A DNA stretch of 64,000 nucleotides from Escherichia coli (lineage in GTDB: Bacteria; Pseudomonadota; Gammaproteobacteria; Enterobacterales; Enterobacteriaceae), in the NCBI RefSeq assembly GCF_036507355.1, contig NZ_AP027877.1. One strand, written 5' to 3'. Below, piece after piece: positions 25,701 to 64,000 of the stretch (the stretch's first letter is position 1; each line of letters begins with the position of its first letter). Both the position numbers and the translations under genes were made by a program. The notes below the pieces were generated by a model. It saw only the letters and a list, made by a program, of their open reading frames with translations. It was not told the origin of the DNA and made no database searches.

Positions 25701-25743
25701 GTGATCTTCCTTAATGCTATGAGTAATTAAGGCGAACGCTAAT

Positions 25744-25869
25744 ATACTCGTCATACTTCAAGTTGCATGTGCTGCGTCTGCGTTCGCTCACCCCAGTCAC
25801 TTACTTATGTAAGCTCCTGGGGACTCACTCACTTGTCGCCTTCCTGCAACTCGAATTATTTAGAGTATA
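25744..25869. repeat. ERIC / IRU intergenic repeat element (~126 bp)
   Basis: Contains the ERIC core in reverse orientation (CGCTCACCCCAGTCACTTACTTATGTAAGCTCCTGGGGA) flanked by TATACTCG...GAGTATA terminal inverted repeats. Confidence 0.8.
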
Positions 25870-58003: not shown

Positions 58004-60275
58004 GGAAAACTCCCCAGTTTTGCAGCGATGCCAGTGCCTGCTGTTCGAGTTGTTGATGATGTGCAATGGCTTGTGGTGGGCAATGCAACGGCATTTGCAG
58101 CGCCGAAACGGGAAGTTGCGCCAGTTGATAATGTTCAAGCACCTGATGCGCCAGCGTCCCGCGTTCTCGTGGTGGTAGCCAGGCCATCGCCGCGCGTAAA
58201 TCGGGCAGGGCATTGATAAAATCGGCATCACTTAGTTGATTTAAATGACTGCTGAAACCGGCGATAAATGCCGGCTGACAGGCCAGTTGATGGCGGGCCA
58301 GCGCCAGCAAACCGTGCAGCGCTTCGCTGGATTGTGCCGGGGATAACTGCGCCAGCATCGTCAGCGCCGCTTCGGCACTAGCGTTGGGATGTTCCAGACG
58401 CATCAGTGCGCCAAGAGCCGCGCCGCGATCCAGCGCCGGGGCATGATTCGCATGACTGCGGCGCTCCAGTAAGGCTACCGCCGCAGAAAGCGAAACGCCG
58501 GATAAATTAACGCCGCTATGTAGATCGCGCAGAATATGGCAAAGCGCTTGCCAGCTATGCAGGTGAGCGTGAAACTCCTTTTCATCCGGTCTGCCGTTAG
58601 ATTCACACAGCCACAGCGTGCGATCGATAGCCGCGCATAACGTCGTCTGTAATATCTGCGCGCCTTGCATACCGCTGATTTCATCCAGCCGCCATAAGGC
58701 ATATAGCACTTCCAGCGCCTGGCCCATTTCGGCAAATTGATTTTCCTGGGCTATTAATAATGTGAGTTGTTCCAGTAATTGTTGACTGAAGGACGCCAGA
58801 CCCGCTAACGCTGCCTGGCTAAGACATGTGGTGATACTGCCGATTCCACCCGCGTCCAGCATATCGGCTTCTAATTTATGGCGTGCGGCTTCCTGGAGTG
58901 TGGCACCAAAGCAGGCGGCCTCAATCAATGCCGCATGCTGGCTAAGCGGGCGGGTTAATTTCCAGCGTTCTTCACCATTGCCTGCAAGTGTCAGTGTACT
59001 TCCCTGCTGGCGTACAATCCCTGGGATCTCCAGTATTGCCAGCCGATGTAACACCTGACTTTGCGCTAGTCCATTGGGGTTAAAGCGATTTAAGGTAAGC
59101 TCCGCCGGAAGAGAGATTGTGGTACGTTCCAGTTCGCAGGTGACATCTTTTGGCAGAGGCGGTTGTGGCGTGGAGGGGGCAAGTTTACCGAATCCGTCAC
59201 CCGCTAATGTGTCTATCAACGTTAGCAGAATCGGATCGGTGTCGGGATGAATAACTCCGCGATAACTCCACGGCAACGGCGCATTCAGGGCTTCTTTAAT
59301 CAGCGAGCCTGCTATGGCATCCAGCCAGTCAGTGCGTAACGGTAGTTTATGTCCGCGCAACTGTGCCAGCGCCATCGCATGCAGATGAGCGGCAGCCATA
59401 TCCGCGGTCGAAGCAGGCAAGTGGTGTTGGCGCAAACGGGTAAGAACCGTTTTTAGCAGTTGTTCTCCCGCCTGCTGTAAGCCCCACTGCCAGCACCAGC
59501 TTTGCCAGACCGGGGCAGGCATTCCGGAAAGGTATCCTGCCAGCACATCAAGGCGCTTTTCACTGTAGGGTGTGAGATAACAACCTGTAACGGCATCTGC
59601 CAGCGACGGCAATTCTGGCGTGTTAATTTCCTGCGGACATTCGCGCCACATTTTTGCCAGTGCCGGAGCGTGCCAGCCACCGCAGACAACTAACACGTCG
59701 CCATTATTTTGCTGCATCGCCCATCCAATCCAGCGGGCCATAAAGGCTTCGCGCTGACGATTGAGTGCATCTCCGGGGGAGTCGCCCCGCAGTTGGGCAA
59801 AATAGTGCGCCAGCGCAGAGGGTAATGCAGTTTGCTGGCTTTCATCTTCGAACAAGTGATCCCACAGGGTATCGCTGTTATCCATGCGGGTGGCACGCAG
59901 CAGTAAGGCCTGGCTTTCATCTTGCGTATCAGGCGAATCGTCCTCTTCTTCACTCTGTGCCCAGCAAGGCAAATCGATGAAGTAAGTTTGTGCCTGAATA
60001 CGACGTGCGGCTTGTAGCGCCTGCCACTCCGGCGAAAATTCAGCAAATGGCGTCCAGGCACCGCGCCCGGGGGCCGTACCGTCCTGATACTGGCAATAAC
60101 TGTAAATAGCTACCGGAAGCTGGTGGGCTAAAAACAGTTCGTCTACCAGGTCATTAAAATCAGCCGGGCCTTCAATCAACACGTATCGTGGCCGCTGGCT
60201 TTCGATTAACGATTTCACCAGCCGGGCGCAGGCCGGGCTATGATGCCGGATGCCGACAATTAACGGCTCGCTCAT
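57996..60275 (-). CDS. yehM: large protein of unknown function (DUF5682-like)
   Basis: ORF 57996..60449 trimmed to MSEPLIVGIRHHSPACARLV... (759 aa); no catalytic motif recognised by eye. Confidence 0.8.
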   Translation of the reverse strand: MSEPLIVGIRHHSPACARLVKSLIESQRPRYVLIEGPADFNDLVDELFLAHQLPVAIYSYCQYQDGTAPGRGAWTPFAEFSPEWQALQAARRIQAQTYFIDLPCWAQSEEEDDSPDTQDESQALLLRATRMDNSDTLWDHLFEDESQQTALPSALAHYFAQLRGDSPGDALNRQREAFMARWIGWAMQQNNGDVLVVCGGWHAPALAKMWRECPQEINTPELPSLADAVTGCYLTPYSEKRLDVLAGYLSGMPAPVWQSWCWQWGLQQAGEQLLKTVLTRLRQHHLPASTADMAAAHLHAMALAQLRGHKLPLRTDWLDAIAGSLIKEALNAPLPWSYRGVIHPDTDPILLTLIDTLAGDGFGKLAPSTPQPPLPKDVTCELERTTISLPAELTLNRFNPNGLAQSQVLHRLAILEIPGIVRQQGSTLTLAGNGEERWKLTRPLSQHAALIEAACFGATLQEAARHKLEADMLDAGGIGSITTCLSQAALAGLASFSQQLLEQLTLLIAQENQFAEMGQALEVLYALWRLDEISGMQGAQILQTTLCAAIDRTLWLCESNGRPDEKEFHAHLHSWQALCHILRDLHSGVNLSGVSLSAAVALLERRSHANHAPALDRGAALGALMRLEHPNASAEAALTMLAQLSPAQSSEALHGLLALARHQLACQPAFIAGFSSHLNQLSDADFINALPDLRAAMAWLPPRERGTLAHQVLEHYQLAQLPVSALQMPLHCPPQAIAHHQQLEQQALASLQNWGVFHV

Positions 60276-60285
60276 GCATCTTTCC

Positions 60286-61374
60286 TCACGGCAGGCGGTG
60301 ACGGGCTTGATAATAAGCCTGCCAGTGAGCTTCTTTATGTGTGGCGACACGCTGTTCGAAGTAACGGCGCAGACGAGCGCGATCTTCTTCGTTATCTTTG
60401 ACGATGGTTCCGGCAATACAGTCCACCAGGTCGGCAGGCTCCCCCGCACGATTCGCTAAAAACCAGGCGCGGACGCCCACAGCGTGAGCCACATTCACGG
60501 CTTCAGCGGTGGACATAATTGCCGTCAGTGTATCCATTGACGTTTTCTTTTCGCCGTTGGCACGCAGATCGCGGAAGGTGCGGACCAGTAACTCCAGTAC
60601 CGCGTCAGGCACTTTATGCGGAATACCGCTATGGGCCAGCAAACGCGCCGAAGCACTGGCGACAAGCTCCAGCTCCTGGGCGAAATCCATAATCGGAAAG
60701 ACAGTTTCAAAATCGAAGCGACGCTTTAGCGCAGCACTCATTTCATTGACGCCGCGATCGCGGGTATTGTCAGTGGCAATAATATTAAAGCCTTCTCGCG
60801 CATAGAGCTGACTGGCTTCACCAGTGAGTTCCGGCACCGTCATCACCCTGTCAGAAAGCATACCTAACAGACAGTCTTGCACTTCCAGCGGTGTACGCGT
60901 TATCTCTTCAAAACGGACGATTTTGCCGTCGCGCATTCCCTGGTAAAGCGGGGCTGGGACCAGCGCTTCCGTTGATGGACCATGATTGATAAGCAGGGCG
61001 TAGTTCCAGCCGTACTTGATTTGATCTTCGGTAGTAGATGCGCCGTCCTGGATGGTTAACCCGGCATCGCCGCTAATAGCGGTTGCCAGTAATTCAGACA
61101 GGAGAGATTTTGCGGTGCCAGATTCCCCCACCAACATCAAACCGCGTCCGGTGGCAAGAGTGACTAACATACGTTCGACAGCGGAGGGACTAATCACCAC
61201 TTTACGGCTAATATTTTGCGCGCTATCGCCAAGGATAAAAGCACGGGCCGCAGGCAAACTTAACTGCCAACCGGGCGGGCAAGGTGCGTTATCATTTTGT
61301 TTTAATTTTGCCAGTTCATCGGCGTATAACACAGCAGCAGGCGGACGCTGCAGATGATTATTCTGCGGTGACAT
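60286..61374 (-). CDS. yehL: MoxR-like AAA+ ATPase
   Basis: ORF 60286..61440 trimmed to MSPQNNHLQRPPAAVLYADE... (362 aa); Walker A GESGTAKS at nt 61105..61128; AAA+ core. Confidence 0.85.
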   Translation of the reverse strand: MSPQNNHLQRPPAAVLYADELAKLKQNDNAPCPPGWQLSLPAARAFILGDSAQNISRKVVISPSAVERMLVTLATGRGLMLVGESGTAKSLLSELLATAISGDAGLTIQDGASTTEDQIKYGWNYALLINHGPSTEALVPAPLYQGMRDGKIVRFEEITRTPLEVQDCLLGMLSDRVMTVPELTGEASQLYAREGFNIIATDNTRDRGVNEMSAALKRRFDFETVFPIMDFAQELELVASASARLLAHSGIPHKVPDAVLELLVRTFRDLRANGEKKTSMDTLTAIMSTAEAVNVAHAVGVRAWFLANRAGEPADLVDCIAGTIVKDNEEDRARLRRYFEQRVATHKEAHWQAYYQARHRLP

Positions 61375-61484
61375 ATATTCATCCCTGAAATGTATTAATG
61401 AAATAAACGATATTTTACGTGCAATAAATGTTTGGCGCATTAGTTGTTTGAGCGAAAAATATCTGGAAAGCAGATCACAGTAAA

Positions 61485-61568
61485 TAAAAAAACCTGCTGG
61501 TGAGGCAGGTTCTTTTATTTACTATTTTCAGGCCTAACACCACAGCCTGTGCAACATCGTGTTCCAAC
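61485..61568 (-). ncRNA. orzO: candidate OrzO-like antitoxin sRNA of the zor/orz type I TA locus
   Basis: Minus-strand sigma70 promoter (-35 TTGCAA 61603..61598, 17-nt spacer, -10 TATAAT 61580..61575) precedes a region whose transcript would be complementary to the zorO 5' UTR (direct DNA repeat 61549..61573 vs 61715..61739), ending at a minus-strand hairpin plus U-tract (stem 61492..61510, A-run 61485..61491 on plus strand). Boundaries approximate. Confidence 0.45.
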
Positions 61569-61574
61569 GAACGA

Positions 61575-61625
61575 ATTATAACCACGGCTGGACCCCGTTG
61601 CAATTAAGATAATGAGATTTATAAT
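61575..61625. promoter_or_regulatory. back-to-back divergent promoters for zorO (+) and orzO (-) sharing one palindromic -35 hexamer
   Basis: Plus strand: TTGCAA (61598..61603), 16-nt spacer, TATAAT (61620..61625). Minus strand: the same self-complementary TTGCAA, 17-nt spacer, TATAAT (61580..61575). Predicted zorO TSS gives a ~174-nt 5' UTR. Confidence 0.45.
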
Positions 61626-61806
61626 CCAGACCGTTGGGACGTTGCGCCGGATCGGACCAATTTTAAGTCCTGGCTACCGGACGGGTGGTGCTGCAGGTGG
61701 TGCCCTGATCCGGAGTGCAACATCGTGGTCCAACATACGTAAACCAGTATCGACAGGCAGTGTAAGGGTAAGGTGCTGGTGTTGCGCTCCTTAATAAGGA
61801 GAGCGG

Positions 61807-61896
61807 ATGGACACGCTGACACAAAAGTTAACCGTGCTCATTGCTGTACTGGAGCTATTAGTAGCTCTGTTACGGTTGATTGATTTGTTGAAGTAA
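61807..61896 (+). CDS. zorO: type I toxin ZorO (29-aa hydrophobic membrane peptide)
   Basis: Read from sequence: AAGGAG RBS then ATG...MDTLTQKLTVLIAVLELLVALLRLIDLLK; matches recalled ZorO of enterohaemorrhagic E. coli; below track cutoff. Confidence 0.8.
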   Translation: MDTLTQKLTVLIAVLELLVALLRLIDLLK

Positions 61897-61919
61897 CGGG
61901 CAAATTGAAACGCATCTAA

Positions 61920-61942
61920 GGGGGAAAACCGCTTCCCCCTTT
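61920..61942 (+). terminator. rho-independent terminator of zorO
   Basis: GGGGGAA-aaccgc-TTCCCCC hairpin followed by TTT. Confidence 0.5.
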
Positions 61943-61950
61943 AATAAAGC

Positions 61951-62005
61951 TATACTCGTCATATTTCAAGTTGCATGTGCTGCGACTTGAATTATCTAGA
62001 GTATA
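61951..62005. repeat. short ERIC-like element (terminal arms only)
   Basis: TATACTCGTCATATTTCAAGTTGCATGTGCTGCG...GAATTATCTAGAGTATA matches the outer arms of the full ERIC at 25744..25869 but lacks the central core. Confidence 0.5.
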
Positions 62006-62323
62006 TTATTCTATTTCTTGGTTGAATATATTCTGTAGTTCACGATTAAAAATTGCTATTACAGTTTCAGGTGATTCACCTCGTAATTTCCGCTCATCAA
62101 TACACTCATCTCTTATATAAATCAACGCATCATTTATTAGCGGGTCAGCATCTTCTCGATCACGTTGATGAAATGTTGGATGTAGCCGGAATCGCTCCAG
62201 TCGATAGACGGAACCTGTAAATAATTCAGAGCATTTATGGATCTCAAGTCTGAAGGAAAACGGATCTTCAGGTACAGGGACCTCATAATCGTAAATAGCA
62301 ACTAGCTCTTTTTGCACGATCAT
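62006..62323 (-). CDS. yehK: small protein of unknown function
   Basis: 105-aa ORF MIVQKELVAIYDYEVPVPEDPFSF...; sits between yehI and the zorO insertion. Confidence 0.8.
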   Translation of the reverse strand: MIVQKELVAIYDYEVPVPEDPFSFRLEIHKCSELFTGSVYRLERFRLHPTFHQRDREDADPLINDALIYIRDECIDERKLRGESPETVIAIFNRELQNIFNQEIE

Positions 62324-62383
62324 CGCTTTCCCCGCTGGTAAGTCGTGTAGATAACGGGCAGTCGCATCACTGCCCGCTGTGTT

Positions 62384-64000
62384 TTAATGGAAAATGACGT
62401 CAGGTGCGCTTAACGCCTCACTCAAATCAAACACATCAAGTTCGGCAAAAGTGACGGATTTATTGTCACGGTACACTCGAAGAGAACGGAAGCTCATTAA
62501 CGCTTTGCTATCAACATTGTAGTGGTTAAAACCGGGTGAAAACTTAAGGACCAGCCGGTACTCGCCCAGGTCATAGACAAATGCGTCCTCATAGCCTGAC
62601 TCCCAGCCTTTGTATCGCATTCCCATAAGTTGCCCAACGGTAGCGGATTTACCTTCCCAGCGAGTCAGGCTGTTACTGGTTGACTCGTCAGGTGTGAGCA
62701 GCACCGTGCGGCGCGACAACTGGCGAAAAGGCGGCATAATTTCGTAATCGGCAAAAAGCTGTGCAAATTCACTGCGCATTTCTGCTGTCATTTCTAACGG
62801 GTGGGCAATGCCAATCAGAGCGTCCGCAGGCAGGTCAATTGGCTCATCTTGCGCATTGCAGAACTCCCCCTCTGCGGCCACACGAAAGGCGTTGAGTAAA
62901 CAACGCGGTTCATTTGCCGGATAAACCCCCCATATTAATCGCTGGGTAACCAGACGGGTAAAGGGATGATTAACAAACAGAGAATGAAAATCTGCCAGCG
63001 ACCAGCGTCGGGTGGTACGTAGGGCAGCTTCAAGACGCGGGAGCAGGTTTTTGCTCACCTGAGTAGCATCTTTTTTTAGCCCTTTTAGTCGGGCCAGTGC
63101 CTCGGGCGCTTTCAGTTGATCGTCATCGGCGCGCAACCGGGGAACGCTTTTCTGGTGAACGTTTTGCTGATCAAAGATAACCGGGTTGAGGTTTTCATCG
63201 AAGCGAACGGTAAACTGCCGGGGACCAAAATCAAAACTCAACGCCTGCGGATCATCAAGGCCCAGGGTTGGGACTAATCTGTCCGCTAGCTCTTCCTGGC
63301 TTAGCCCGCGATTTTCTGCGACCACCTGAAGAAATTCCGCCGCGTTATCACGTAAGGGGCGGGATTTAGCCCGTTGCGATATATGATGCAGCTGTATCAG
63401 CGCCATATCATTATTCATCAGGGTAAGGATGTTCAGGCCGCTGACAGCACGGGCAGATTTGCCTTCTTGTGGCCAGGCGAGGATCTGTGTCGTCAGATCC
63501 CGTGCCGTGCTTTCGTCACCAAAGAGACTTAACGCCAGAAATGCCCAGTTGTCTTTTGCGGGGGCACCAGCTTGTTGCCACGCAGTGAAGAGATCCCAGG
63601 CAAAAGCTGCCAGCGTTTGTGGCTGGCAGAACGTTTTCAGTTGTTCCAGCCCGCTATAAAAACGTCCCCCCTGGGTAAAGCGCAGCATTTCGCCGATAAT
63701 TTCCAGAGCGTCATCGGTAACAGTTTGATTATTAGTGATAAGGCGCGGCCTGGACCACATTTGCGGATGCCAGAAATCAGGGGCTTTTGGAATGCGTGCC
63801 GGGTAAATCTCTATTGGACTCTGTTTAAGTAATTGTTCCAGGGCAGGCCATAGATCTGTACGCTGCCAACGATTGGCTACAGTTTGTAGCAATTCGCCAT
63901 GCCCATGTTCGTAAAGTAAACGCAGGGCAAGTAATGCATCTTCGCTTTTATCGCTAGATTTGGTGAAGACAAGAGGGATAAGTGCAGTAGCCGTATGTTC
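62384..64000 (-). CDS. yehI: DUF4132-family large protein (partial; N-terminal part lies beyond the window end)
   Basis: Track ORF 62384..63892 (502 aa) is an internal-Met artefact; the frame remains open to the window end. Confidence 0.8.
   Translation of the reverse strand, partial: EHTATALIPLVFTKSSDKSEDALLALRLLYEHGHGELLQTVANRWQRTDLWPALEQLLKQSPIEIYPARIPKAPDFWHPQMWSRPRLITNNQTVTDDALEIIGEMLRFTQGGRFYSGLEQLKTFCQPQTLAAFAWDLFTAWQQAGAPAKDNWAFLALSLFGDESTARDLTTQILAWPQEGKSARAVSGLNILTLMNNDMALIQLHHISQRAKSRPLRDNAAEFLQVVAENRGLSQEELADRLVPTLGLDDPQALSFDFGPRQFTVRFDENLNPVIFDQQNVHQKSVPRLRADDDQLKAPEALARLKGLKKDATQVSKNLLPRLEAALRTTRRWSLADFHSLFVNHPFTRLVTQRLIWGVYPANEPRCLLNAFRVAAEGEFCNAQDEPIDLPADALIGIAHPLEMTAEMRSEFAQLFADYEIMPPFRQLSRRTVLLTPDESTSNSLTRWEGKSATVGQLMGMRYKGWESGYEDAFVYDLGEYRLVLKFSPGFNHYNVDSKALMSFRSLRVYRDNKSVTFAELDVFDLSEALSAPDVIFH

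Follow-up and report, generated by a model that had tools for sequence, protein, structure and literature searches.

The window analysed here is a 64,000-nucleotide stretch of Escherichia coli DNA (NZ_AP027877.1), in which the spacer between yehL and yehK carries one zor/orz toxin-antitoxin unit, with zor convergent to yehK, and a 55-bp palindromic element, a shortened ERIC, wedged between the two (Table 1). The element starts 8 nt (AATAAAGC, 61943-61950) past the end of the zor terminator, and its last nucleotide, 62005, abuts the yehK stop codon TAA (the reverse complement of 62006-62008), which is the position given in an initial annotation of this DNA. The zor/orz unit (61486-61942) is identical at 450 of 457 positions (98.5%) to the yehL-proximal zorP/orzP copy of O157, as compared with 407 of 455 (89%) for the O157 zorO/orzO copy. 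It is therefore zorP/orzP-like in RNA and regulatory sequence, yet the encoded peptide is that of ZorO (Thr3). The neighbors had been correctly named, zorO among them as far as the peptide is concerned, with the refinement that the unit as a whole is of the zorP/orzP kind. It looks like a one-unit allele akin to the two-unit array of O157. The mechanically called yehL ORF, which starts at 61440 and encodes 384 aa, is longer by 22 codons at its 5' end (61375-61440) than the RefSeq gene, a 1,089-nt CDS in matching loci. A literature search on yehK and yehL in connection with repeats found nothing relevant.

Table 1. Features of the yehK-yehL spacer and its surroundings, with the reference ERIC copy of the window (window coordinates).
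Feature	Position	Strand	Basis or remark
Internally deleted ERIC (IRU/RU-1), 55 bp	61951..62005		Imperfect palindrome, hairpin on either strand
Retained left arm including the single surviving 8-bp repeat	61951..61987		35/37 identical to the copy at 25743; split ambiguous, k = 29-37
Deletion junction CTGCGACT	61980..61987		Two copies in full-length alleles at the site, flanking the missing 72 bp
Retained right arm with terminal inverted repeat TGAATTATCTAGAGTATA	61988..62005		In K-12-type orz-only genomes only GAATTATTTAGAGTATA is left
Left TA of the target-site duplication	61951..61952		Partner TA at 62004-62005; empty versus filled sites
Full-length 127-bp ERIC, in-window reference	25743..25869		Sequence comparison, fold
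Interval missing in K-12-type genomes, relative to the single-copy allele of the window	61664..61988		325 bp, TT microhomology
yehK, 105 aa	62006..62323	-	Stop TAA 62006-62008 against ERIC; ORF and RefSeq annotation of matching loci
yehI	63892..62384	-	ORF and RefSeq annotation of matching loci
yehL	from 61440	-	ORF and RefSeq annotation of matching loci
zor toxin ORF, 29 aa, MDTLTQKLTVLIAVLELLVALLRLIDLLK	61807..61896	+	Peptide identical to ZorO; convergent with yehK
zor terminator hairpin and TTT	61920..61942	+	Ends 8 nt before ERIC
orz antitoxin sRNA	61486..61561	-	Rfam OrzO-P, 99.9 bits, E = 1.5e-16; orzP-type by sequence
zor promoter-like site TTGCAA, 16-nt spacer, TATAAT	61598..61625	+	Hexamers match those in PMC11264685
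Divergent orz promoter-like site	61603..61575	-	Promoter scan; hexamers match PMC11264685

The 55 bp read TATACTCGTCATATTTCAAGTTGCATGTGCTGCGACTTGAATTATCTAGAGTATA and are composed of the left and the right arm of an ERIC. The left 34 nt agree with the full ERIC of the window at 33 of 34 positions and the right 21 nt at 19 of 21, while the central 72 bp of that 127-bp copy are missing, which bears out the initial description of an ERIC-like element with terminal arms and no core. The full copy cited there for comparison is present, although it begins at 25743 and not at 25744. Within the 64 kb, the 34-nt left-arm pattern occurs in two places only, the short and the full ERIC, and 100 shuffled sequences gave 0 matches. 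A terminal inverted repeat, TATACTC...GAGTATA (61951-61957 and 61999-62005), places a TA at both termini. The RNA of the minus strand, which is the yehK-sense strand, is predicted to fold into a hairpin of -19.1 kcal/mol (z = -5.5) and that of the plus strand into one of -22.8 kcal/mol (z = -6.1); 0 of 200 shuffles folded as well, and the base of the stem is AU-rich. A chance resemblance, or an unrelated small palindrome, could be suspected from the short length alone, but a near-perfect match over 34 nt has a chance expectation of 0 and other strains and species have orthologous full-length ERICs at precisely this nucleotide, so that this explanation has a vanishingly small probability.

An Rfam scan of positions 60000-64000 at a permissive E-value yielded no family for the short ERIC, the only match being a partial, sub-threshold one to isrH (RF01391) on the minus strand of 61951-62005, which scored 20.4 bits against a gathering threshold of 45, covered only positions 161-216 of the 280 in the model and falls short of isrH membership. 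The match lies exactly on the ERIC stretch. ERIC-like sequence and this segment of the model are thus similar, and weak isrH matches elsewhere could be spurious for that reason.

ERIC, also called IRU or RU-1, is reportedly a 127-bp enterobacterial MITE known from the work of Sharples and Lloyd in 1990 and of Hulton and colleagues in 1991. With it the short element has in common the terminal sequences, the 7-bp inverted repeat TATACTC/GAGTATA, TA ends together with a TA duplication, an intergenic position 3' of a gene, an imperfect palindrome forming a stem-loop, and derivation from a full-length ERIC present at this locus. Unlike ERIC, it measures only 55 bp and has lost the 72-bp center together with the conserved core to which ERIC-PCR primers are designed, and its similarity to the 127-bp consensus is confined to the arms instead of extending over the whole length. 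Judged by its sequence, it is a deletion derivative and not a full member of the ERIC family. As such it is an ordinary feature, and the literature had already pointed to ERICs with internal deletions.

The 1.26-kb spacer, used as a query, matched 5,255 of 5,426 complete E. coli genomes in several length classes, representatives of which were then compared. Alleles in the same 5,426 genomes were counted with queries specific to each junction, at a query cover of 80% or more. These queries were centered on the junctions with halves shorter than the 28-nt megablast word, and queries containing the core were used for the full and insert-bearing forms. Counting by coverage with long queries was dropped because split pieces are joined to one place, by which full and short forms both score 100%. 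The short 55-bp form, detected by its junction 55-mer, was found in 934 genomes and the full 127-bp ERIC in 905, a number that includes a form with a 78-bp insert (at most 375 of the 905, as an upper bound). Two types lack the element, namely E1 (...AAAGCTATTTTTC...) in 685 genomes and E2 (...AAACTAATATTC...) in 698, and a K-12-type deletion junction was counted in 1,845 (34%). These classes sum to 5,067 of the 5,426 genomes, and about 170-190 genomes have unclassified arrangements at the site. The same allele proportions were obtained in an evenly spaced independent sample of 60 records.

All alleles sit at exactly the same nucleotide position, at the yehK stop. The full 127-bp ERIC is present at the site in, for example, the E. 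coli loci L001 and L009, whereas the 78-bp insert lies within the left half of the ERIC in L002 and, at this site, in the type strain ATCC 11775. The short form adjoins either one zor/orz unit (the window and strain 2013C-4465) or two (O157:H7, L005). Its majority variant is of the O157 type, ATACTTCAAG...ACTTTAATT, while the window carries ATATTTCAAG...ACTTGAATT, for which strain 2013C-4465 (NZ_CP015241.1) was the only perfect match in the sampled rows. This exact variant looks rare among genomes, and identity to the window of 99% or more across the 1.26-kb spacer was reached by only 12 records.

The 78-bp insert (GGGTTATTCGGCCC...GGATTTGTC, approximately positions 1148-1225 of L002) is also present, in some genomes, within ERICs located elsewhere on the chromosome, which suggests that it is itself a recurrent or mobile insert of a "long ERIC" class. 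Long ERICs with internal insertions of about 70 bp are said to have been described by Cromie, Collins and Leach in 1997. At the present site, the insert-bearing form (L002, ATCC 11775 and Escherichia sp. MOD1-EC7003) constitutes a sister allele, the window having a deletion instead.

The origin of the short form can be read from the full allele of L001, in which the sequence ...GTG-CTGCGACT-GCGTTCG...CTTC-CTGCGACT-TGAATT... shows a pair of 8-bp direct repeats exactly flanking the 72 bp that are missing from the window. The window allele equals this full allele minus one CTGCGACT and the intervening DNA, and every placement of the breakpoint within the 8 nt fits equally well. The full ERIC is predicted to fold such that the lost part corresponds to the distal hairpin and the retained arms to the basal stem. 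As the repeats flank the missing 72 bp in the full alleles, the short form is best explained by a slippage deletion across the ERIC hairpin, and we infer that slippage was the probable mechanism of the loss. In each of the 934 genomes the junction 55-mer occurs in one place, which is always yehK, and this single site argues for a local deletion and against a transposing or otherwise mobile subfamily of short elements. Deletions of this type, in which the center of an ERIC palindrome is lost, the ends are kept and short direct repeats mark the deletion boundaries in the progenitor, were reportedly described by Sharp and Leach in 1996. Removal of the center and direct repeats in the progenitor are both found for the short ERIC and nothing essential differs, with progenitor (full) and product (short) here both present at one orthologous site. 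The term "palindrome-induced deletion" itself appears in the title of that paper (Sharp and Leach, 1996, as cited in PMC3696847).

Comparison of empty and filled sites indicates how the progenitor arrived. Empty sites read AAAGC-TA-TTTTTC (L003, L008) or, in E. whittamii (L013), AAAC-TA-TTATTC, and the filled site reads AAAGC-TA[ERIC]TA-TTATTC, which amounts to the empty site of E. whittamii or of E1 plus the element and one extra TA. A TA target duplication has been described for ERIC (PMC2759123; PMC2229807). Outgroups were sought with a YehK-based scan of one genome per species, which returned three non-coli loci, a thin outgroup sample, and recovered no locus from E. fergusonii, E. albertii, E. 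marmotae or E. ruysiae; E. fergusonii has been reported to possess zor (PMC2887945) and was listed by Fozo et al. (2010). The most distant relative recovered, E. whittamii, whose YehK is 78% identical, has two tandem zor/orz units and no ERIC. Its site, ...TTTAATAAACTATTATTC..., gives GAA TAA TAG on the yehK strand, a tandem stop, and equals the predicted pre-insertion sequence. The other two loci each have one zor/orz unit, accompanied by a full 127-bp ERIC at the site in Escherichia sp. E1V33 (L011) and by the insert-bearing ERIC in Escherichia sp. MOD1-EC7003 (L012). That three Escherichia species other than E. coli have zor/orz in the yehK-yehL spacer indicates that the locus is old at this site. 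In the simplest history, zor/orz would predate the ERIC there, a polarity given by E. whittamii as the single ERIC-less outgroup and by the diversity of the empty-site alleles.

The genealogies of the flanks are mosaic. The left flanks of the alleles ST2747_E1 and 5132_full are 0.0% divergent while their right flanks are 8.1% apart, and the right flanks of ECO8855_E2 and K-12 are 0.0% divergent. Recombination has thus shuffled the spacer, and the flanks do not allow independent events to be counted. The history could also be read in the opposite direction, with the ERIC ancestral in Escherichia and the empty alleles (E1, E2 and E. whittamii) arising from precise excisions that restored a single TA. 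Indeed, the element is present in the two unclassified species that, among those scanned, are nearest to E. coli, and ERIC-less and ERIC-bearing E. coli alleles can have identical flanks on one side. However, at least three independent precise excisions would be needed. Moreover, E1 and E2 differ from each other and from the filled sites by several substitutions and an indel at the junction, and E2 is nearly identical to the empty site of E. whittamii, a pattern that suggests ancient allelic lineages reshuffled through recombination and not recent excision. Ancestral presence followed by excision is therefore considered unlikely.

The favored course of events is insertion followed by decay. 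A 127-bp ERIC would have inserted, with TA duplication, at the TA directly 3' of the yehK stop, in the tandem TAA-TAG stop region that E. whittamii still has, as the empty and filled sites suggest, that is, into the gap of about 12 nt between yehK and the terminator of a convergent zor/orz that was presumably already resident. In one lineage, the 72-bp center was then lost between the two copies of CTGCGACT near the base of the hairpin, for which replication slippage across the hairpin is the simplest mechanism, and what remained was a mini-hairpin of 55 bp consisting of both arms. At the same site, some lineages kept the full ERIC and some gained the 78-bp internal insertion, and in K-12-type lineages a deletion of about 325 bp (or larger), reaching from the zor 5' UTR into the right arm of the ERIC, left an orphan orz. 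That the short ERIC is a decayed copy which lost its center by slippage after such an insertion is, taken jointly, very probable. The locus thereby offers a one-site picture of ERIC evolution, comprising the empty site, TA insertion, internal insertion, deletion of the hairpin center and near-total loss.

In the initial annotation, the truncated element was suggested to mark a scar of the acquisition of zor/orz. Under this explanation it would be a boundary of the insertion between yehK and yehL and would travel with zor. At most about 10 nt separate the ERIC from the right-hand end of the zor/orz repeat unit, and MG1655 has been described as lacking zor and as having a spacer of 0.3 kb instead of 1.2 kb (PMC2887945), both of which would fit. 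A comparison across genomes with and without zor, of the kind recommended as a check, shows, however, that ERIC status is independent of zor among zor-positive genomes. The element is absent from 1,383 of the 3,222 zor-positive complete E. coli genomes (~43%) and from E. whittamii in spite of its two zor/orz units, and full, insert-bearing and short ERICs are all found beside the same zor terminator. Conversely, the 1,845 zor-negative genomes of the K-12 type retain the right end of the ERIC together with orz and part of the zor 5' UTR and are deletion derivatives. One breakpoint of the K-12-type zor deletion, a loss event, lies inside the right arm of the ERIC, and a zor-less ancestral yehK-yehL spacer that would define a boundary of acquisition was found neither among the E. 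coli alleles nor at the three non-coli loci. The location exactly between zor and yehK, on which the suggestion was founded, results from the fact that only about 12 nt, which hold the target TA of the ERIC, separate the zor terminator from the yehK stop. An acquisition scar is accordingly highly improbable, and the case illustrates that a repeat beside an accessory-looking locus need not be a scar of integration.

A connection between ERIC and zor exists in the reverse sense. In K-12-type (orz-only) genomes zor is gone, and the remaining parts are orz, a zor 5' UTR stub of about 27-30 nt and, from the right arm of the ERIC, its final 17-19 nt; the junction reads ...GGACCAATTT|GAATTATTTAGAGTATA|TTATTC..., where GAATTATTTAGAGTATA is the right end of the ERIC. 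The breakpoints lie at 61661-61663 on the left and, within the right arm, at 61986-61988 on the right. Every one of the 1,845 genomes retains a piece of ERIC, and the combined retention of orz, UTR stub and ERIC end identifies them as products of zor loss, not as loci that never gained it. To judge from these junctions, the only real link between the two elements is this loss with one endpoint in the ERIC, which concerns about one third of E. coli. Orz-only loci, with the orphan antitoxin OrzPmg and 27-29 nt of the zor 5' UTR left, have been described for K-12 and ~30% of strains (Shore et al., 2024; PMC11264685). The locus is the same, the present count of 34% (1,845 of 5,426) is in line with their ~30%, and the length of the 5' UTR stub agrees. 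ERIC is not mentioned in PMC11264685, and the distal breakpoint is placed within its right arm here. Unlike these loci, the window has an intact zor. A mildly useful new point is that the orz-only allele of K-12 is a deletion from the zor 5' UTR into an ERIC, with zor/orz being old and the toxin having been lost by K-12.

The right end of the 72-bp deletion (61979-61987) lies within a few nucleotides of the right breakpoint of the K-12-type deletion. It might be asked whether the ERIC hairpin at the yehK stop is a local deletion hotspot that was also behind the K-12-type deletion of zor and hence the orphan OrzP. This has a rather low probability, and whereas the position of the breakpoint is observed, a causal role of the ERIC in the loss of zor is speculation. 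If true, a MITE would have directly caused the loss of a toxin in about one third of E. coli.

In MG1655 (NC_000913.3, ~2204290-2204595; L004, L014), the yehK-yehL spacer holds orz, the zor 5' UTR stub and the 17-19 nt ERIC remnant, and no feature is annotated there in the RefSeq record. The K-12 remnant has a T where the other E. coli alleles examined have a C (GAATTATTTAGAG versus GAATTATCTAGAG), and this T agrees with the ERIC consensus and with both unclassified Escherichia species.

With regard to function, the short ERIC is most likely a neutral relic without a selected role. Its sole probable molecular effect would be to open the yehK 3' UTR with a stable predicted stem-loop. A promoter and terminator scan called nothing in or at the ERIC, and the idea that the element serves as the yehK terminator was dropped, as no terminator-like site was called there. 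ERICs of Yersinia modulate the stability of co-transcribed mRNAs in an RNase E-dependent manner, an effect described for complete elements that lie in one particular orientation (De Gregorio et al., 2005, as summarized in PMC2229807). They likewise lie directly 3' of a stop codon on the transcribed strand. By analogy, it might have been co-opted as an RNA element that acts on yehK mRNA stability or buffers convergent transcription of yehK and zor. The hairpin is stable on the yehK-sense strand and is followed there by the complement of the zor terminator hairpin, and orientation-dependent effects of ERICs on the stability of upstream mRNAs are on record (De Gregorio et al., 2005, as relayed in PMC2229807 and PMC3184786). 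Yet a quarter of E. coli genomes have no ERIC at all here and another third keep only 17-19 nt of it. The coexistence of five alleles of different structure at high frequency speaks against constraint, the base of the stem is AU-rich and no terminator-like site was called there, and some full-ERIC lineages have a yehK annotated as frameshifted. Co-option is thus quite improbable, and a measurable effect of the short ERIC at the RNA level is equally doubtful.

Several minor variations at the junction concern yehK itself. RefSeq treats the gene as a frameshifted pseudogene in L001 (strain DETEC-S566, full ERIC) and in L002 (strain MS20658, insert-bearing ERIC). The C-terminus and the stop codon of YehK (62006-62020 in the window) vary with the junction allele: in ERIC-bearing E. 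coli alleles the protein ends ...EIE-TAA (105 aa), in the E1 type ...EIEK-TAG and in the E2 type ...LIEY-TAG (106 aa each). In ETEC4075, yehK reads through to the zor terminator, and the resulting 117-aa product is labeled hypothetical; in Escherichia sp. MOD1-EC7003 the gene runs four codons into the ERIC (...EIELYSK). Insertions of IS1 were seen at the yehK-yehL spacer of strains 2EC1 (L010) and 98193. In 2EC1, yehK is apparently deleted beside an IS1A, past which the annotation shows a truncated "WGR domain-containing protein", and only some 38 nt surrounding the ERIC's right end are left.
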